From Candidatus Micrarchaeota archaeon (GTDB lineage Archaea > Micrarchaeota > Micrarchaeia > Anstonellales > Bilamarchaeaceae): a DNA stretch of 32,946 nt. How positions within the stretch are numbered: position 1 is the first letter of the stretch; every line of letters starts with the position of its first letter. Of the stretch, positions 1,201 to 32,946 are shown piece by piece. The stretch is from assembly GCA_043816005.1 (NCBI GenBank), contig JBDRIM010000024.1, positions 1 to 32,946 of the forward strand, given 5' to 3'. Made by a program: the position numbers and the translations under genes. The notes beneath the pieces were generated by a model. That model saw only the letters and a program-made list of their open reading frames with translations. It was not told where the DNA came from and did not search any database.

Positions 1201-1265
1201 ACTACAAAACCGTCGGCTTGATTTTTAAGTTTATTTATTCAATTATCTTCACTTCTATCTATACC

Positions 1266-1297
1266 AAGGAGATTCAAAAAGGATCAAAGTCCTTTTT
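1266..1297. repeat. Dispersed AAGGAG-hairpin repeat, copy 1
   Basis: AAGGAGATTCAAAAAGGATCAAAGTCCTTTTT resembles 6452-6483 and 23907-23935 and contains stem AAAAAGGAT/GTCCTTTTT. Confidence 0.55.
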
Positions 1298-1310
1298 AAG
1301 AGGTTTAATC

Positions 1311-5900: not shown

Positions 5901-6276
5901 TTCCACTACTGTCAAGGTTATGTTTTTTCAGAGCTTCTACAACACTACCTCTAGTAGTTTTCTTATCATTAATTCGGTAGCGTATTTTACCATCTTCTCT
6001 TATTGCCCTTCGTATCTCATAACCATGGCCATCATCACTTTCAAGTACAAGACTTACTTCTGCAGTTCTTGATCCACCATGTATCAAATCAGTGACCTTT
6101 CTGGCACGAAGAGATTTTAGGCTTGTTTCACCCATTACAAATCGTATGGCATCGCAAAGGTTGCTCTTGCCACTTCCATTTGGACCTGCAAAACAAATGA
6201 ATGTTGCCGGCAAATGAACGTCTGCTGCTTTGAATGATTTGAAATTCCTTAATTTAAGACGGGAGATAAAAACCAT
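2917..6276 (-). CDS. smc: Chromosome segregation protein SMC
   Basis: Walker A GPNGSGKSN, long coiled coils, hinge (GIYGTVADLI...GRATFIPL...SGG), signature LSGGEK, Walker B YILDEVDAALD. Confidence 0.97.
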   Translation of the reverse strand: MVFISRLKLRNFKSFKAADVHLPATFICFAGPNGSGKSNLCDAIRFVMGETSLKSLRARKVTDLIHGGSRTAEVSLVLESDDGHGYEIRRAIREDGKIRYRINDKKTTRGSVVEALKKHNLDSSGRNTIAQGEVQRIVNMNGKERRQIIDSVAGIADFEEKKREALSELNMVETRIKDANLVMGEREAFLKELEIEKETAIKYTGAKKNLTNAKGTVLKKEIERLSKDQTQLDNQEEKFNVTQKTKEKEMADIETEIGEVDSVRAKLSEELQSKQKTNAMIRRLEELKASCASKKQFVDDKEKTIGDIKIEIEEIERESAKERESLVALEKEMIRLKNELKNAEEQLAKHGGSTEDDRITEIRRTLEKHEKELESVKEKLGAITSEIDAKRQVVDAKKAEEESIIVNDDNEGQREDLNHTKREIERITKEIDSSFTKTKEINAQMTDLDRQMLELKEKLSIFRVRSSPQLANPALSFIGDLAKTTNGIYGTVADLITFDPEYANAIEAAGGARLLYVIVDSVDTATSAIEKLKKAKAGRATFIPLDSIRTPQPVKVGKISSILEIVECKSNVRRAIEYVFADTLLVDSVTDAKKLGIGTSRMVTSGGEIFERSGIVSGGRTQSGVLNNHNLRKIENEFNDMKSTKESLLQELYSIREEESKMRAEKARFEIHVKTAEMKEKMESERREEIERLAKRKEQIVKEITEFEKSIKERTIEREHIAKKVTEAEGKLAGIKEHLRAAESEYKRSSEESSKKRAELSAAVSSLKATIEGRYSEMNIRKKEYTAKEERAKKLEKEEKEVVEKIKEMKKQIGDDEKEFLHMEEKMKSVSKEIERIFEKMRSCEEELRKIGNKRGQIRIELDKVIRDMNQLTVKTATTKTRLEDMQIEFASYGSAEFLELEKEELNNMIKQSEEILSTIGNVNMAAVEMYEKKKAEMADVQEKIEKLDQEREAILSMISEIDEHKKEAFFETFNSVSDNFSKMFKYINVGQGHLHLSNPSEPFESGLFIKLRRNNQEHALDALSGGEKTLVAMMFVFALQMFKPAPFYILDEVDAALDKTNSKNLADLVIGMCKESQFIMVSHNDTVMSNADSVIGVTKVDGVSKLVGIKLKQVMKET

Positions 6277-6303
6277 TTAACCGGACGATAATCTCAGAGC
6301 AGG

Positions 6304-6317
6304 TTAAAAAGCGTTTC
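6304..6317 (-). promoter_or_regulatory. Putative BRE/TATA promoter of smc
   Basis: Minus strand AGAAACGCTTTTTAA about 28 nt upstream of the smc ATG. Confidence 0.4.
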
Positions 6318-6347
6318 TGCGCTAACCCTTGGATTTAGACAAATTAG

Positions 6348-6395
6348 TCTGATAAAAATTAGGTGCGTGATTGAATTTCGCTTCAATAATCTGAT
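6348..6395. repeat. Degenerate double-hairpin-type insertion flanked by TCTGAT direct repeats
   Basis: TCTGAT-AAAAATT...ATTGAA-TTTCGC-TTCAAT-AA-TCTGAT has the same layout as the units at 9075-9178. Confidence 0.4.
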
Positions 6396-6412
6396 GTAAG
6401 AACAAGAAAAAA

Positions 6413-6491
6413 TGGACAACTCAGCGAACGTCGTTCGCTTAAGTCCAATAAAAGGAGGTTAAAAAGGGACCAAGGTCCCTTTTATTGGACA
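6413..6491 (-). mobile_element. Double-hairpin insertion in the tRNA-Ala 3' trailer with TGTCCA direct repeat
   Basis: Sense TGTCCA-ATAAAAGG..CCTTTTATTGGAC-TTA-AGCGAAC-GAC-GTTCGCT-GAGT-TGTCCA-TTTTTT, with a 73-nt spacing between the direct repeats. Confidence 0.5.
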
Positions 6492-6500
6492 CGGAGGGAT

Positions 6501-6618
6501 ATGTTCCCCGCTTTTTAGTAAAAAGCGGTCAAAAACAATCTGTTGATTTTGCCTTCGGCAAAATGCGAAAGCATTTTCATCAACTAATTTTTGACCGACT
6601 TTTTTTCAAAAAGTCGGA
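6501..6618 (-). other. tRNA-Ala intron 2 (118 nt, non-canonical T-loop position 58/59)
   Basis: BHB-like: central helix GTTC/GAAC, bulges AA|T and AT|A. Removal restores the T-loop TTCAAAT. Confidence 0.85.
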
Positions 6619-6639
6619 TTGAACCCCCAGCCTTCCACA

Positions 6640-6679
6640 AATTGGAAGTTTTTAGTTAAGTTTTTTTCCAAAAAACTTA
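6640..6679 (-). other. tRNA-Ala intron 1 (40 nt, canonical 37/38)
   Basis: Strict BHB: central helix TTGG/CCAA, bulges CG|T and TT|T, outer stem AAGTTTTT/AAAAACTT. Confidence 0.9.
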
Positions 6680-6716
6680 CGCCAAGCGGATGCTCTACCG
6701 TTGAGCTACGTGCCCA

Positions 6717-6751
6717 TTGTTCTTTTTTAGAAAAAAAGAACCAAAAAACTG
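6717..6751 (-). repeat. T/A-tract hairpin element in the tRNA-Ala 5' leader
   Basis: 33/35 nt identical to the reverse complement of 30641-30675. The two differences form one compensatory pair. Confidence 0.8.
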
Positions 6752-6768
6752 GCTGTTTAAAAAAAAAA

Positions 6769-6993
6769 TTAAGATGGAGATATGAAAGTTACAGAGTCGC
6801 CTCGGAGCAATATTGTTCCTACACCTCTCTTCACTTCACCGTTGACCATCTGCTCTGCTTTTTCTAGAACGATGTTCATGTGTACGTCATATGCTATCAT
6901 CACACCTCGGAATTCGCTTCCACCTTTCATCCCGATGATGACTGTGTTGTTCAATGCGCTATTCAATACATCAAATGGTCTCTTTTCTGGCAT
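6769..6993 (-). CDS. Sm-like archaeal protein (Lsm/SmAP1)
   Basis: MPEKRPFDVLN..., Sm1 motif (FRGVMIAYDVHMNIVLEKAE) and Sm2 motif (LLRGDSV). Confidence 0.95.
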   Translation of the reverse strand: MPEKRPFDVLNSALNNTVIIGMKGGSEFRGVMIAYDVHMNIVLEKAEQMVNGEVKRGVGTILLRGDSVTFISPS

Positions 6994-7138
6994 AAAAATT
7001 TCACCTTCCTTTTTCATTAATAAAAATTTTTATTATTGATCGTTTCGACGATCAATGGCATAAAAATTTCACGCTCCTTTTTCTTTATCTTTGAGGGAAA
7101 TTTTTATAATTGAACGGTTTTCCGTTCAATGGCATAAA
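6988..7138. repeat. Two tandem double-hairpin units (68 and 74 nt) triplicating the Sm start region
   Basis: TGGCATAAA at 6988, 7056 and 7130. Each unit has an ATAAAAATTT/AAATTTTTAT stem and a 9-bp ATTGA..TCAAT hairpin. Confidence 0.85.
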
Positions 7139-7223
7139 TCCACCTCAAAAAATTAAAACTTATAGCATCTTTAATCCAGTTAATATTTAAATCTTCTACT
7201 TATATTTTGTTTCTGGTGCTATT

Positions 7224-7736
7224 ATGGTTAAATCAAAATCTGAGTTACCTATTGAAACTACTTACAAAAAAATGTCTGATAAACTATTTTCCATTGAAGC
7301 TCCTATGGAGTGGGAAGCTCGTTATTTAGATGTAGGTGGCGTTTCTCAGCACAATATGATAACATTTAGATCACCAAAAGACGTACAAAAAAATTCCACT
7401 TCCCCCAACTCATTATCTGTTCAATACTTCGATCGGGATGGTCCAATTGAATTAGATGCTCAGACGTATGCTAATAACGAAGCATCAATTAATCCTGGTG
7501 GTAAAACCCAAGCCAAAAAATCTGATTTCAATGGTTTACCCGGTGTTCTAGCAATAACTCAGGATTTACCATTTAATCTAAATGAAGGACAAGTGCTATG
7601 CACGGTCCAGTCAAGGTATCTCCAAAATCCAAAGAACCTCAAATTGTTCAGAATAAGTTTTTGGTATGATAAAACAAAAGAAAAAGAATTTGATCCTCTA
7701 TTTGATCACATGCTCAAGAGCTTTCAATTCAAATGA
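7224..7736 (+). CDS. PsbP/DcrB-like domain protein
   Basis: FSIEAPMEW near the N-terminus, FNGLPGV, and C-terminal FDHMLKSFQFK match the Mog1p/PsbP-like fold pattern. Confidence 0.55.
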   Translation: MVKSKSELPIETTYKKMSDKLFSIEAPMEWEARYLDVGGVSQHNMITFRSPKDVQKNSTSPNSLSVQYFDRDGPIELDAQTYANNEASINPGGKTQAKKSDFNGLPGVLAITQDLPFNLNEGQVLCTVQSRYLQNPKNLKLFRISFWYDKTKEKEFDPLFDHMLKSFQFK

Positions 7737-8210
7737 TCATTCGTTATTTACGATCGTCTCTATTTTTCCAGGTCCTTTGAATATTATTATTCTATCTGCA
7801 GTGTTGCGCAATGCAGCGCTGAATGCAACATCTGTTGCAATTATCATTGTTTTTTTGCCATATGCTTTTGCCTTAACTAACACTGGCCTGTAATCTGTAT
7901 CCCTTGTCATCAAAGCAATAATATCTATGTTTTTGTCAAGTACATATTCCATTGCTTCTATGGCCATCGTCACGTCGACGTCTCCGGTTGTTATTTCAGT
8001 CTCAAACCCTTGGTTTACCATTGCTTCAATAAGTTTATCAGATGCAAACTGATCAAGATAAATTTTTGAGATTCTGATGTTACCATATTTACTGATCTCT
8101 TTTCTAAGCTCATGAAGGTCTACATTAAATGCCTTGCGTAGTATGTTCGGACCATCGACCAAAAGTGCAATATCTAATCTCTCCTTTTTCCTTTTCAAAA
8201 ATTCAAACAT
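7737..8210 (-). CDS. NYN/PIN-fold protein (TIGR00288/LabA-like)
   Basis: IALLVDGPN, GDVDVTMAIEAM, TRDTDYRP and ALRNTAD motifs. Confidence 0.88.
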   Translation of the reverse strand: MFEFLKRKKERLDIALLVDGPNILRKAFNVDLHELRKEISKYGNIRISKIYLDQFASDKLIEAMVNQGFETEITTGDVDVTMAIEAMEYVLDKNIDIIALMTRDTDYRPVLVKAKAYGKKTMIIATDVAFSAALRNTADRIIIFKGPGKIETIVNNE

Positions 8211-8215
8211 TATAT

Positions 8216-8944
8216 CTACTCCAACGTAAAGTCAAAAAACTTCATCGCATTTTCTGCGGTTGCTTTTGCAACTTTTTCTTCGCTAATTTCTTTTACTTCG
8301 GCAATATACGCGATTGCTTCGCGAATGGACTCGGGAGTCCTGCCAACATAGGGTGAATCACTTTCCACCAGAAGTCTATTCAGCGGTATACTATTAATAA
8401 CTTTTCTACGGTCTTTCGAACGAAGATGCATTATGGAAATGTATCCTCCATTTTGCACGATTTCTTTAGCATTTTCTTCAGATCCTGAATAAAAATGCAT
8501 CAAAATTTTCATTCCGCTAATTTTTTTCATTATGTTCTCAACTGCATTTTTTGGAACTTCATTTTCATTCGGATTGTTCCTCGAGTGTATAACAACTGGC
8601 AATCTCATTTCATTTGCCAATGCAATCATCCTATCAAATGCCTCATTTTGTTTTTCTACATCTGATTTTGTTTTTGCCCATTTGTAATCCAAACCTATTT
8701 CGCCAATAGCATTTGGCTTATTTTGTCTGATAAATTCTATCCATTCGTCCAGTTTTCCAATGCCTTCTTTTATTGTTGTTTGGGGGGCTATGCCAAGTAC
8801 AAATGGGTAGTTTTTTGCTTTTGCTAGTTCTACTGCCTTTTTGTTACTGCCATGAGAATAAGCACAGACAACTGGATAAATGTCCGACGGAAGAACATAC
8901 TCTTTTTTCATTTCAAAGAGGTGGGTGTGTGAATCTACAAGCAT
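8216..8944 (-). CDS. tatD: TatD family hydrolase
   Basis: DSHTH, AIGEIGLDY, VIHSR, HFYSG and LLVESDSPY motifs. Confidence 0.93.
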   Translation of the reverse strand: MLVDSHTHLFEMKKEYVLPSDIYPVVCAYSHGSNKKAVELAKAKNYPFVLGIAPQTTIKEGIGKLDEWIEFIRQNKPNAIGEIGLDYKWAKTKSDVEKQNEAFDRMIALANEMRLPVVIHSRNNPNENEVPKNAVENIMKKISGMKILMHFYSGSEENAKEIVQNGGYISIMHLRSKDRRKVINSIPLNRLLVESDSPYVGRTPESIREAIAYIAEVKEISEEKVAKATAENAMKFFDFTLE

Positions 8945-9072
8945 AAATTTGTTAAGTGTCTTTAATTATAAAAACTTTCTAATATCATTCCTACATAAGT
9001 ATGAATCTGTAAAGGGGAAAGTTTGATTTAAAAACCCTAATGCTTTATAAGTTATACTTCACTCGAATTATC

Positions 9073-9183
9073 AGGTGTAAAAATGTTCGTGCATTTTTAC
9101 TTAATAAAAATTCGAAATTTTTATAAGTGTAAAAACGCTGATGTGTTTTTACTTAATTGAAATCTGAATTTCAATAAGGTGTA
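9073..9183 (+). repeat. Two tandem 52-nt double-hairpin units triplicating the aIF5A RBS
   Basis: GTGTA at 9075, 9127 and 9179. Each unit has a 10-bp GTAAAAA..TTTTTAC hairpin, TTA, and an 8-9-bp hairpin, with covarying pairs. Confidence 0.85.
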
Positions 9184-9186
9184 TTA

Positions 9187-9579
9187 ATGGTTGATAAAGT
9201 TTTTGCTATTGCAAAGGAATTAAGGGTAGGAAGATATGTGCTCATAGACGACATTCCATGTAAAGTAGTGGAGGTAGAAAGCTCAAAATCAGGCAAGCAT
9301 GGATCAGCTAAAATGAGGATAACAGGTATCGGCGTATTCGAAGGCCAGAAGAAAACTCTTCTAAGTCCAGGTGATGCTGATGTTGACATGCCTATTATCG
9401 ACCGTAAAAATGTTCAGATAATGTCAGTAAATGGTACAAATGCCCAGGTCATGGATCAGCAATCATATGAGGTTTATGATATGGAGATACCGCCAGAGCT
9501 TCTAAGTGCAGCCGCACCAGGTAAAGAAGCAGAAATTTTGGAATGTATGGGTAGAAAAAAAATGGAGAGGATTAAATGA
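9187..9579 (+). CDS. eif5a: Translation factor aIF5A
   Basis: Hypusination motif SKSGKHGSAK. Confidence 0.96.
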   Translation: MVDKVFAIAKELRVGRYVLIDDIPCKVVEVESSKSGKHGSAKMRITGIGVFEGQKKTLLSPGDADVDMPIIDRKNVQIMSVNGTNAQVMDQQSYEVYDMEIPPELLSAAAPGKEAEILECMGRKKMERIK

Positions 9580-23899: not shown

Positions 23900-23938
23900 C
23901 AATTAAAAGGAGATTAAAAAAGGACCATGGCCCTTATT
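23900..23938. repeat. Dispersed AAGGAG-hairpin repeat, copy 3 (terminator-like on the - strand)
   Basis: CAATTAAAAGGAGATTAAAAAAGGACCATGGCCCTTATT aligns with 6446-6486. Confidence 0.6.
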
Positions 23939-24749
23939 ACTCATCCCAGATCAATATTTCAATATCTAGGTCTGGTGAGCTCGGAGAACGACATCTATAT
24001 TTGCGCATATCTAATCCATATCTATCGCTTAATTCATCACGGGCTCTTCTTGTAAGATTACGTAATAAAAATTTTCTGGCTTTATCCAACCCTTCCTTTT
24101 CTGCTACTTCCATTGCCTCAAAAAATATCTTCTCAGCATCCTTTGTTCCCCATCGTTTCAACACGGCTATACACTCTAGATATAAAAGTAAATTCTTTGC
24201 ATTTCCAAATGCAATTGCTCTATTGTCTCCAACTACTTTACTGCTTTCTATTCGTCTGATACCTTGAACACTGGAACGAAGTAATCCATTTGGTTCTGGT
24301 AATTCTAATGCATACATAAAACGAACGCAATGGCGTGCTAAAAGATGATACATCCTAACACGTTCGGCAATCTCACGTTGTTGCACCCCTCCATTGCCTA
24401 AAAGTGTGCTTTCAAATGCATATGCTGCTGATTCTTCCATACAAGTTAATCTAGCCATTCCAACTCCTTTTCTTTCTGCTCTCATGTGAAATTTTTCATG
24501 AACATCAGTTTCAGCAGACGGTCTACTTGGTTGGCCATCATAAAATAATTGTTTGTCTATGTATACTGCTTCTAATGGATACATAGCAGCAAATTTACTG
24601 CCATTTCGCAATCTTCCTAAATGTGCTTTAAATCTTCGTTTTGCAACTCTCCTATCAATAGTTGCAACAACTGTTAGTGTCTTGGTGATCTCTCTAGGGC
24701 TACATATGTCGGCTTCTGCCAGAAATCTCATTCGGTGTATTTTTGACAC
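23937..24749 (-). CDS. Hypothetical Arg-rich protein with an HExxH motif
   Basis: VHEKFH followed by MEESAAY, a gluzincin-like spacing. Confidence 0.6.
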   Translation of the reverse strand: MSKIHRMRFLAEADICSPREITKTLTVVATIDRRVAKRRFKAHLGRLRNGSKFAAMYPLEAVYIDKQLFYDGQPSRPSAETDVHEKFHMRAERKGVGMARLTCMEESAAYAFESTLLGNGGVQQREIAERVRMYHLLARHCVRFMYALELPEPNGLLRSSVQGIRRIESSKVVGDNRAIAFGNAKNLLLYLECIAVLKRWGTKDAEKIFFEAMEVAEKEGLDKARKFLLRNLTRRARDELSDRYGLDMRKYRCRSPSSPDLDIEILIWDE

Positions 24750-30456: not shown

Positions 30457-30713
30457 GCCCCTGTAGCGCAGAGGTAGCGCGCGTCCTTGGTACCAACTTT
30501 TTGGAAACGCGATTGTTGCGATGCAACAATGCGCCCATTGTTCGATTCGAACAATTGGGAGTTGGATCAAAACTGGTTGTTTGAAAACCCTTTCGGGTTT
30601 TCGGTGAAAACCATTTTTGCGTAAGCAAAAATTAGCAATTCAGTTTTTTGGTCCTTTTTTTCTAAAAAAGGACAAAAAGGACGAGGTCACGAGTTCAATT
30701 CTCGTCGGGGGCT
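30457..30713 (+). tRNA. tRNA-Thr(GGT) with one long intron (exons 30457-30492, 30678-30713)
   Basis: Spliced GCCCCTGTAGCGCAGAGGTAGCGCGCGTCCTTGGTA|AGGACGAGGTCACGAGTTCAATTCTCGTCGGGGGCT forms a complete cloverleaf. Confidence 0.93.
30493..30677 (+). other. tRNA-Thr intron (185 nt, 37/38), multi-hairpin with a relaxed splice motif
   Basis: Central helix TTGG/ACAA has one mismatch. The intron is built of at least five hairpins plus an enclosing stem. Confidence 0.8.
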
Positions 30714-30823: not shown

Positions 30824-32946
30824 ATGAAGTTAATCAGAATTTTCTTGTTAATACTGATTTTATCAGCTTTTAACTTTGCTGCAACTCGTGCAGTAAACGG
30901 TACTGCTACTTCTTGTGTTCCAGGAGCAGTTGGTAATTATTCCACAATCCAAGCTGCAATAAATGCTGCGAGTGACGGAGATACAATAATTGTCTGTTAT
31001 CAAGGTCCGTCATACTCAGAAAATGTAGATATTAACAGATCAATAAACTTATATGGAAACCAATCAGCAGTAAGAGTTTATGCTTCAAACAGTTCTGATC
31101 ATGTTTTTCATATTTCAAGTCAATATGTAAATGTAAGTAATTTTACTTTAAGCGGTGCAGCTAATTCTCTTAAATCAGGCATTCGGATTTATGCATATAT
31201 GAATCCTTCTTATTCCACCATAACCAATGTGACTGTTCACAGTAGTTATAATGGTATCAGTAATGAAAAACCAGATATTGGTAACACTTTCATCTCAAAT
31301 ACAATATACAATTGTAGCGCGGGTTTCTATATCTTCTCACCAAACAATACTTTCATTTCTAATCTTGTTTATAACACTTCATTTGCCTTTGATATAAAAA
31401 ACTCATCTAATATTCTAACTTCCAACACAGCCAGCAACAACTCAGTTGGTTTCATGGTAGAATCTTTTAGCAACAACAATATATTAACAAACAACGTGGC
31501 CAATAACAACACTCAAGCTGGTTTCTCCATATCCTCCTCAAGTAATTACAACAACCTAACAAATAACACCGCATATAACAACTCCTACGGTTTCTATCTA
31601 TCCTCAAGCAATTATACTACATTAACAAACAACACAGCCTCCAACAACTCTCAAAATGGTTTCTATCTATCATCAAGCAATAACAATAATTTAACCTCCA
31701 ACACAGCAAATAACAACTCCCAAAGTGGTTTCTATCTATCCTCAAGCAATAACAATAATTTAACCTCCAACACAGCAAATAACAATACACAACAAGGTTT
31801 CTCATTATCTTCAAGCAACAATACTATACTGACAAATAATACTGCATTTATCAATATATATAATGGATTTCTTTTAACTTCAAGCAACTACAATACCTTA
31901 ACTAATAATACGGCGTATAACAATACTGAAGTTGGCATATACCTCTACACGAACTCTGACTATAATAATCTAACTAATAATCTCGTATACAATAACATTT
32001 TGTTTGGTTTCTCCATATCTTCAAACAATTATACTACATTAACAAACAATACGGCCAACAACAACAACAATTCTGGTTTCTATCTATCTTCAAGTAATTA
32101 TACTACATTAACAAACAACACAGCCAACAACAATTCTAATTTTGGTTTCTCCATACCTTCAAGCAATAACAACAATTTAACTTCCAACACAGCCTATAAT
32201 AACACCCAATCTGGTTTCTATCTAACTTCAAGCAATTATACTACATTAACAAACAACACCGCCTCCAACAACAACAATTCTGGTTTCTCTTTAAGTTCAA
32301 GCAATTACAATAACTTAACAAACAACACAGCCTCCAACAACTCCAATTATGGATTCTCTATATCTTCCTCCAATTACGTTACTTTAACCTCTAACACAGC
32401 CTCCAATTCTAGTGGTGGTTTCTCCATATCTTCAAGCTCTAACAACAACTTAATCTTCAACACGGCCCACAACAATACTATTCGTGGTTTCTACATATCT
32501 TCAAGCTCTAACAACAACATAACCTCTAACACAGCCTCCAACAACACTGGGAGTGGTTTCTATCTATCCTTAAGCAGCAACAACCTACTAACTTCAAACA
32601 TGGTTTATGGTAATTCGTCGTATGGAATTTTCCTACTATCTACAACTAACAATACTTTTGTAAATAATTTAGTGGCCAACACTGGTTATGGATTTGTTAT
32701 AGCACAAGACAATATCAGTAATTATACGACAAACAATATTGAAAATTGTAGTTATGGTTTTTATATTAGTTCTTATGTCGGAGGAGGCGGAAAAGGTCCG
32801 TTAGTCTATTATAACGGTTCATTGGTGACTACTTTCTTAGGAAATAATCTCACAAATACAACATATGCAATTTACTTAAATAATTCAAACTTAACTTTCT
32901 CAGGTAACAATGGAATTTACAATACCCCATCAACAGGAAAAGAAAT
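30824..32946 (+). CDS. Secreted or surface parallel beta-helix (NosD/CASH-type) repeat protein, 3'-partial
   Basis: Signal peptide MKLIRIFLLILILSAFNFA, YSTIQAAINAASDGDTIIV, and repeats of GFYLSSSNxNxLTNNTAxNN. Open to the window end. Confidence 0.88.
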   Translation, partial: MKLIRIFLLILILSAFNFAATRAVNGTATSCVPGAVGNYSTIQAAINAASDGDTIIVCYQGPSYSENVDINRSINLYGNQSAVRVYASNSSDHVFHISSQYVNVSNFTLSGAANSLKSGIRIYAYMNPSYSTITNVTVHSSYNGISNEKPDIGNTFISNTIYNCSAGFYIFSPNNTFISNLVYNTSFAFDIKNSSNILTSNTASNNSVGFMVESFSNNNILTNNVANNNTQAGFSISSSSNYNNLTNNTAYNNSYGFYLSSSNYTTLTNNTASNNSQNGFYLSSSNNNNLTSNTANNNSQSGFYLSSSNNNNLTSNTANNNTQQGFSLSSSNNTILTNNTAFINIYNGFLLTSSNYNTLTNNTAYNNTEVGIYLYTNSDYNNLTNNLVYNNILFGFSISSNNYTTLTNNTANNNNNSGFYLSSSNYTTLTNNTANNNSNFGFSIPSSNNNNLTSNTAYNNTQSGFYLTSSNYTTLTNNTASNNNNSGFSLSSSNYNNLTNNTASNNSNYGFSISSSNYVTLTSNTASNSSGGFSISSSSNNNLIFNTAHNNTIRGFYISSSSNNNITSNTASNNTGSGFYLSLSSNNLLTSNMVYGNSSYGIFLLSTTNNTFVNNLVANTGYGFVIAQDNISNYTTNNIENCSYGFYISSYVGGGGKGPLVYYNGSLVTTFLGNNLTNTTYAIYLNNSNLTFSGNNGIYNTPSTGKE
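31520..32600 (+). repeat. About 69-nt coding tandem repeat (23 aa)
   Basis: GGTTTCT starts at 31589, 31658, 31727 and 31796. Several units are nearly identical at the DNA level. Confidence 0.8.

Follow-up and report, generated by a model that had tools for sequence, protein, structure and literature searches.

The tRNA-Ala(GGC) gene in the window, that is, the whole stretch of 32,946 nucleotides analysed here (contig C24 of a 1.26-Mb archaeal genome with 36% GC, labelled G000), is followed by a genuine double-hairpin unit, a member of a modular family that is spread over the genus and polymorphic within it. Units of this family share a layout, recur, have empty alleles, duplicate their target, carry an arm that matches it and possess a second hairpin, hairpin B, of free origin. 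The explanation that we consider probable, if only just, is that a hairpin from the genome's repertoire was captured together with a duplication of the target, the arm matching the target being made by fold-back copying; this mirroring of the target is likely to arise when a polymerase folds back on its own strand at the birth of the unit.

Besides SMC, Lsm, aIF5A, Kae1 and Hjc, the window encodes, between Lsm and SMC and on the minus strand (6715–6486), the tRNA-Ala(GGC) that serves as target of the unit and whose orthologues stand at the same position behind Lsm in relatives. Its three exons (6715–6680, 6639–6619 and 6500–6486) are separated by a 40-nt intron at position 37/38 (6640–6679) and by a 118-nt T-loop intron at 58/59 with nested hairpins (6501–6618), which is not present in the related genomes G023 and G049. 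Both introns have bulge–helix–bulge ends, and with both removed the spliced tRNA folds into a 72-nt cloverleaf. It is because of these two introns that ARAGORN and Rfam both overlook the tRNA-Ala(GGC); Rfam matched no other family in the window either. Intron positions in this gene vary among close relatives, being in the D loop and at 37/38 in G023 and at 37/38 only in G049. Elsewhere in the window, a second intron-bearing tRNA (30457–30713, plus strand) is detected by ARAGORN with intron search only, under a name that is probably wrong, and positions 31400–32670 code for Asn/Ser-rich repeats of 69 nt (23 residues) in at least 13 copies.

The last six nucleotides of the tRNA had been predicted to recur 73 nt downstream, directly before a T6 run. 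Indeed, TGTCCA, which corresponds to tRNA positions 68–73 (6491–6486, minus strand, as are all positions of the unit), is found again at 6418–6413, immediately before T6 at 6412–6407, and the two copies enclose a gene-less unit of 67 nt. Hairpin A starts at the second tail base; its arms (6490–6478 and 6455–6443) pair over 13 bp, the 5′ arm comprising five tail and eight trailer bases. The original prediction of a 13-bp stem beginning inside the target was correct, with the qualification that 6 of the 13 bp are owed to the third arm of a three-armed free repeat (6483–6450) which forms the inside of hairpin A. Only the last seven nucleotides (6449–6443) are an antisense extension specific to the unit, and the last five of these are the reverse complement of tRNA positions 69–73, so that the element does contain the reverse complement of its own target. 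The free repeat is present in five copies in G000 and six in G023, as counted with a regular expression, and in G023 one stands directly behind the last tail copy. Relatives of it in the window (1263–1298 and 23904–23939) lie at gene boundaries; in contigs C20 and C54 and in G023 C8, a hairpin doublet is nested within the loop of the three-armed repeat.

The second half of the unit (6442–6419) consists of a TTA spacer, hairpin B and a GAGT spacer. Hairpin B (6439–6423; 7 bp, 3-nt loop) has a GCGAAC/GTTCGC core from the genome-wide hairpin repertoire, which is present in many free doublets of both G000 and G023. The longest nearby match to hairpin B is 7 nt, and it has no local source; accordingly, template switching alone does not build the unit, and capture of a non-local module is needed. 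The fold of the 79-nt stretch has a z-score of −4.95, with 0 of 200 shuffles as good, and a 6-nt tail copy together with a 7-nt antisense arm occurs in a fraction of 0.0001 of 100,000 shuffles of the 105-nt trailer. The T6 run, which follows the second tail copy, is likely a transcript terminator; its designation as the original terminator fits less well with the relatives, as the empty allele of G049 lacks a T run at this place and in G023 a similar one comes after the free repeat. The possibility that the unit is spliced as an intron was rejected: its ends lack a bulge–helix–bulge motif (two 3-nt bulges and a 4-bp helix), which is present at the two true introns of the gene, and hairpin A, as judged by eye, is continuous across the tail.

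It had also been proposed that the unit shares its junction motif with the units before aIF5A. The latter (9075–9189, plus strand), two sibling units of a ribosome-binding-site family with two diverged counterparts in G023, are as described, reading AC-TTA-hairpin-AAGT in the first and AC-TTA-hairpin-AAG in the second. The motif is present behind the tRNA as well; however, it is only one of at least four junction types (a–d) around hairpin B behind Ala tRNAs, that of the window being type d, and it has an extra T relative to the aIF5A register. Type d is also found at Ala(GGC) and Ala(UGC) of G012. Their arrangement differs between genomes: G022 has the series a, b, c, G047 has a, b, and G044 the reverse, b, a. 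A single A part occurs with b in G044 but with c in G022.

Across the genus, units of this kind are found at 12 of the 33 orthologous Ala(GGC) ends, with one to three or more units each; the 33 ends come from 34 loci, after one spurious G047 row was dropped and two G012 units were merged, and the 12 do not include the unit-like trailers of G024, G003, G018 and G050. The three closest genomes, which have the same tail and SMC downstream, represent three different states: the end is empty in G049, carries the window's unit in G000, and in G023 is followed by a different short unit and then by the free repeat without antisense arm. None of the seven Ala(GGC) loci from other families in the order has a nearby unit. 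In 16 of 18 rows inspected by eye, the second copy has in front of GTCCA the same base as the host tRNA at position 68; it thus tracks the host tail further than the antisense arm extends. A comparison of four contig sets with window positions 6100–9500 gave no piece across the unit among the matches listed, and hence no strain alleles, while a 20-nt tRNA pattern had three matches in metagenome contigs, all in unrelated DNA. Two further observations concern Ala tRNAs. C54:15034–15230 of G000 carries the 3′ half of a further tRNA of Ala type, which has a T-loop intron, is followed by three units in the order a, b, c and lies between flanks that have no match in G023; at two loci (L012 and L016), the first ~15 tRNA bases are duplicated around small hairpins upstream of tRNA-Ala(GGC), forming a 5′ counterpart of the tail units.

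The layout is not restricted to tRNAs. A strict scan for a repeat, a stem starting in the repeat, a second hairpin and the repeat again gave 31 matches in G000 (some arrays being counted on both strands and a few matches likely being due to chance) and 12 in the 1.147 Mb of G023, compared with 0–2 (mean 0.5) in 20 block shuffles; the sites are located behind tRNAs, at start codons, at ribosome-binding sites and at gene ends. When complementarity was not required, 152 hairpin doublets were recovered in G000, 34 of them with a repeat of at least 6 nt, and the repeat overlapped the stem by at least 3 nt in 25 of the 34; the corresponding figures for G023 were 66 doublets, 19 with a repeat and 17 overlapping. 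This second scan misses the unit of the window itself, where the repeat lies 4 nt off hairpin B. The expectation that first stems complement the flanking repeats throughout the genome is thus borne out as a systematic trend but not as a universal rule, given that the overlap is below 3 nt in 9 of 34 and 2 of 19 doublets, respectively. The window holds two sibling units of a start-codon family at the Lsm start (6988–7144, plus strand), antisense to the mRNA, at a site that is empty in G023. The start-codon and ribosome-binding-site families, including the Lsm and aIF5A units, carry a family stem of their own that overlaps the target by 1–3 bp.

G023 is ~80% identical to G000 in coding DNA and lacks many of its units, so that its empty sites define what was added in G000 and reveal target duplications of 5–21 nt. 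Two classes can be distinguished. The first comprises the start-codon and ribosome-binding-site families, with duplications of 5–7 nt and the family stem with its short overlap (C41:40505, C41:81578, C1:21098 and C80:22085). In the second, comprising four sites, it is unique coding sequence to which the stem corresponds as a mirror image. C73:15208 has an exact duplication of the final 21 nt of a gene, G000-specific codons included, at a site that is empty in G023, and an arm of 6–7 nt folds back on the duplicated gene end ahead of a family hairpin. At the end of the EF-2 gene (C41:64885), the unit lies inside the duplicated gene end; the second copy of this end reads Met-Glu-stop, with codons that differ from those of the first. 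At the gene start C73:11599, ATA now stands in place of the decayed former ATG and a new site is given by the unit, 8 of the 10 arm bases also resembling the Ala arm. Finally, at C60:40361, two 48-nt units stand in frame at the start of a pilin-like gene (C60:40361–40470), whose signal region contains RGQVA three times in frame, compared with one copy in G023; the RGQVA copies differ at third codon positions, and every arm is exact to its adjacent copy. Arms of this kind are beyond what a generic mobile element could bring along; they must have been copied from the target at least at birth, and at protein-gene ends with empty alleles the target is their only possible source, the mirror arm at the four sites likely being a fold-back copy of it. 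The idea that the ends are templated from the target therefore holds for protein-gene ends with empty alleles, but it cannot be generalized to the families whose stems barely overlap their target.

At tRNAs, matching of arm and tail could be assessed more broadly. Parsing of 121 tRNA ends (68 from G000 and G023, the rest from relatives' loci) yielded 50 candidates, 43 of which were kept, seven with a first part of more than 175 nt being left out. In the 16 nt before hairpin B, the longest match to the reverse complement of the own tail was 4.56 nt as compared with 2.93 nt for swapped tails, and the own tail prevailed in 39 of 43 units, although the genomes are related and such counts overstate independence. 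The arms read TGGAC for Ala, TGCCG for Met and Phe, and TGGG for Val and Ile. Behind Ala tRNAs, nearly all units have an antisense part of exactly five bases; as seen by eye, it is TGGAC or TGAAC, whereas TGGGC, as in the 5′ strand of the tRNA itself, never occurs. Tail copies in the parsed units measure 4–12 nt, that of the window 6 nt. Imperfect arms also exist, such as TGAAC at GTCCA tails, and 9 of the 43 units match over fewer than 4 nt. Among 13 homologous long A parts, which are kin and were chosen for having a stem, all six pairs next to the tail vary on both sides; 98.6% of cells pair, a level of covariation that 0 of 500 shuffles reached, and the sole G-U cell reflects an alignment slip, leaving no true G-U pair. 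Two other readings of the arm were rejected: a primer-binding site, as the Met and Phe arms do not include a complement of the added CCA (by eye), and a degenerate tRNA copy, as the Ala arms have A opposite U70 and not the G3 of the tRNA.

Capture with fold-back copying may be pictured in four steps. A hairpin module from the repertoire would first be joined at a gene end in single-stranded DNA, with duplication of 5–21 nt of the target. Next, the 3′ arm of hairpin A would be synthesized in a single step by intrastrand template switching, with the tail and the bases that follow it as template; the paired changes on both sides of the stem without G-U intermediates in the 13 A parts suggest this. 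Later gain, loss and exchange would take place at repeats of 5–11 nt, so that A and B parts could be swapped separately; the differing orders of B types and the association of one A type with b or c point in this direction. In a last step, an insert may be tolerated behind a tRNA because the antisense arm would be sequestered by the second tail copy, so that the acceptor stem would stay available for 3′ processing.

The predicted folds are relevant to this last step. The original prediction that the stem could compete with the acceptor stem agrees with the computed structures, as the spliced precursor with its trailer has two folds of −55.6 kcal/mol each: one in which the acceptor stem is intact and the arm pairs with the second copy, and another in which the arm is on the true tail and the second copy on the 5′ end of the tRNA. 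Computed pair probabilities at 37°C are 0.75 for tail and arm and 0.22 for the acceptor stem in the spliced precursor, and 0.58 and 0.41, respectively, in the unspliced one. The fold model includes neither tertiary contacts nor the order of folding, both of which favour the cloverleaf. The second tail copy is thus predicted to neutralize the antisense arm.

Several observations do not sit easily with capture and fold-back copying. Hairpin B, for want of a local template, requires a capture step from elsewhere. The five-base antisense part at Ala tRNAs suits an inherited module better than fresh copying, and the pairing of arms with the unit's own start is explained as easily by recombination of a circular cassette. 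Furthermore, the start-codon families carry their own stem, and several arms are imperfect. ATTGGAC, moreover, is an end that one free hairpin family has of its own (L164 and C73:15208), so that the 7-nt extension in the window could have been borrowed and not copied. At the locus of the window, templating and inheritance of a ready-made Ala module both fit.

The alternative that survives best, although we regard it as unlikely, is that the units are gene-less cassettes of an integron-like system, which are excised as circles, whose junction folds as one long hairpin (the 13-bp outer stem, a 3 × 5 internal loop and hairpin B) and which a tyrosine recombinase reinserts at a matching tail, the tRNA end being the entry site. 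The 3′ arm of an integron cassette is complementary to the cassette's own start, and in our units the arm likewise pairs further with the unit's own start in 19 cases and with the sequence after the second copy in 2, with 22 ties. When joined at the repeat, the unit folds as DNA into an attC-like structure of −17.5 kcal/mol, with the attC shape of an imperfect palindrome of two stems and an unpaired central spacer. Unit order differs between genomes, near-identical units stand behind tRNA-Met in G022 and tRNA-Phe in G021, which have the tail CGGCA in common, and at Ala and Gly additional units lie proximal to the tRNA in G023. Moreover, tyrosine recombinases adjoin tRNAs in four of five genomes; G000 has two such recombinases, at C41:50336–51574 and on C40. 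Conversely, of seven such recombinases five were scored, and none reached the cut-off for integron integrases (best 53 versus 265 bits), G000 being 86% complete. Sites of the attC type have a conserved GTT/AAC crossover core; such a core is absent from the units, in which there is no fixed crossover sequence and both core and outer stem change with the target. Strand asymmetry gives a divided picture. Of the 43 units, 13 carry loops of the type C-GNA-G, which form very stable DNA mini-hairpins, on the A-to-B strand and none does so on the opposite strand, yet in all trailer hairpins the ratio of these loops by strand is only 24:16; both DNA strands of the joined unit fold equally well (−17.5 and −17.4 kcal/mol), and the ratio of G-T to A-C mismatches is 4:0 in B stems but 59:59 in all trailer hairpins. 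In favour of this reading, attC sites are, by the account in PMC8946536, recognized as folded single strands with little sequence conservation; against it, no gene-bearing cassette with these ends was demonstrated, and arms that mirror single-copy coding sequence would require a copying step at birth in any case. It is tempting to speculate that both processes are combined in self-retargeting cassettes, moved by structure-specific recombination of a single-stranded junction, with the recognition stem being rewritten from every new target gene end. We hold this to be an improbable scenario, but, if true, it would turn tRNA tails and start and stop codons into new entry sites for ordered, shuffled arrays that have no fixed core.

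Rather less probable still is a selected RNA element of the tRNA-linked-repeat type, the alternative folds of which would tune 3′ processing or which would release a small tRNA-tailed RNA. Units behind tRNAs occupy the transcribed strand, the precursor has two folds of the same energy, the stem covaries strongly, and the E. coli tRNA-linked repeats are, according to the description in PMC8144298, transcribed and processed. However, 21 of the 33 orthologous ends do without units, at gene starts the sibling units are oriented antisense to the mRNA, the stem covaries without passing through G-U intermediates, and there is no Rfam match.

We consider it very unlikely that the units are REP- or IS200-like elements, in which a Y1 (HUH) transposase would bind hairpin B and the five antisense bases would be a guide pairing with the cleavage site. 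The repeat would then be the element's own end and target choice would be made by base pairing. The geometry resembles that of the guide 5′ of the hairpin foot in the IS200/IS605 elements as portrayed in PMC3479197, Y1 genes exist in 9 of 40 genomes of the genus, and two of six Y1 loci (L165 and L164) are nested with such hairpins. Against this, G000, G023, G012, G021 and G022 (81–90% complete) have no Y1 match, although all carry units, and Y1 shows no link to units, being found in 2 of the 12 genomes with Ala(GGC) units as compared with 7 of the 21 without. Furthermore, duplications that take in as many as 21 nt of unique coding sequence cannot be regarded as an element end, and no guide is conserved, as the bases at the foot change with target and junction type. 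The two nested loci show opposite arrangements: at L165 (G017), an IS200-type Y1 element lies inside a unit in the trailer of tRNA-Gly, and at L164 (G049), it is the left-end hairpin of a Y1 element that has received a double hairpin, which is missing from this end at L166.

Lastly, an attachment-site remnant of a lost tRNA-integrating plasmid or virus, with hairpins added later, is hardly credible: the genus does have tRNA-adjacent recombinases, some trailers with tail copies of 18–24 nt and, in G023, a tail copy 5.4 kb behind a tRNA, but the repeat is 6 nt here against the 44 bp given for SSV1 in PMC3293823, the two copies enclose 67 nt and no integrase-bearing segment between long tRNA repeats, with SMC as the next gene, the same layout occurs at protein-gene ends and units stand at non-tRNA sites with empty alleles, and the antisense arm is left unexplained. 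The distant tail copy in G023 (C9:81142 in coordinates of a rebuilt contig), which lies beside a unit, is likely the far end of an integrated island. Reverse transcriptases, with two matches in G000, one in G012 and none in the other three of the five genomes, have no link to units. G000 has an island behind tRNA-Leu (C41:50336–55321), where a tyrosine recombinase is accompanied by a reverse transcriptase split over two frames; together with a second broken reverse transcriptase on C4, this island may represent the remains of a diversity-generating retroelement.

To whichever process they owe their existence, the units strike where a very small genome is most sensitive, namely at tRNA ends, ribosome-binding sites, start and stop codons and a pilin signal peptide, without putting these out of action; new start sites and in-frame peptide can also be provided by them. 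In the open-access literature, no account of such units came to light, be it for Micrarchaeota or for other archaea. The set of filled and empty alleles offers a test of how perfect hairpins and tRNA-linked repeats are born; the E. coli tRNA-linked repeats were described in 1978 and their origin is, on the account of PMC8144298, still open. If a dedicated mover exists, it would constitute a recombination system that makes its site anew from every target.

Among known systems, the E. coli tRNA-linked repeats are the closest in position. As PMC8144298 describes them, they lie directly downstream of a tRNA or rRNA gene in one to five units per locus; here too, one to several units follow the tRNA and end in a copy of its 3′ end. 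Their copies, however, are given as 18–19 bp, whereas ours measure 6 nt (4–12 in most relatives), an antisense arm does not feature in the description of the E. coli repeats used here, and the layout here, unlike theirs as described, also occurs at starts and stops of protein genes on either strand. REP/BIME sequences and IS200/IS605 ends, in the terms of PMC3479197, likewise consist of short hairpins in alternating arrays at gene ends, with bases 5′ of the hairpin foot that are complementary to those of the far end; the present units differ in having no GTAG or other fixed guide, in the absence of a Y1 gene from G000 and in a real duplication of the target. The double-hairpin elements of fungal mitochondria, in the portrayal of PMC10085805, share the two adjacent hairpins, the mostly intergenic and patchy distribution and an unknown mover, but are GC-rich and nearly identical, whereas ours are AT-rich, divergent, modular and matched to their targets. 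Hairpins made by template switching, as presented in PMC8794818, also have perfect reverse-complement arms derived from nearby sequence in one event; here, by contrast, the arm is coupled in a fixed order to a non-local hairpin module and to a target duplication. With integron cassettes and their attC sites, as outlined in PMC8946536 and bioRxiv 10.1101/2022.02.06.479319, the units have in common stacking, self-complementary ends, an unpaired central spacer and a changing order, while differing in that no integron integrase was found, no genes are carried and the outer stem is target sequence. The unit behind tRNA-Ala is thus like a tRNA-linked repeat in its place and like an integron cassette in its geometry, and by the defining features of each it is neither.
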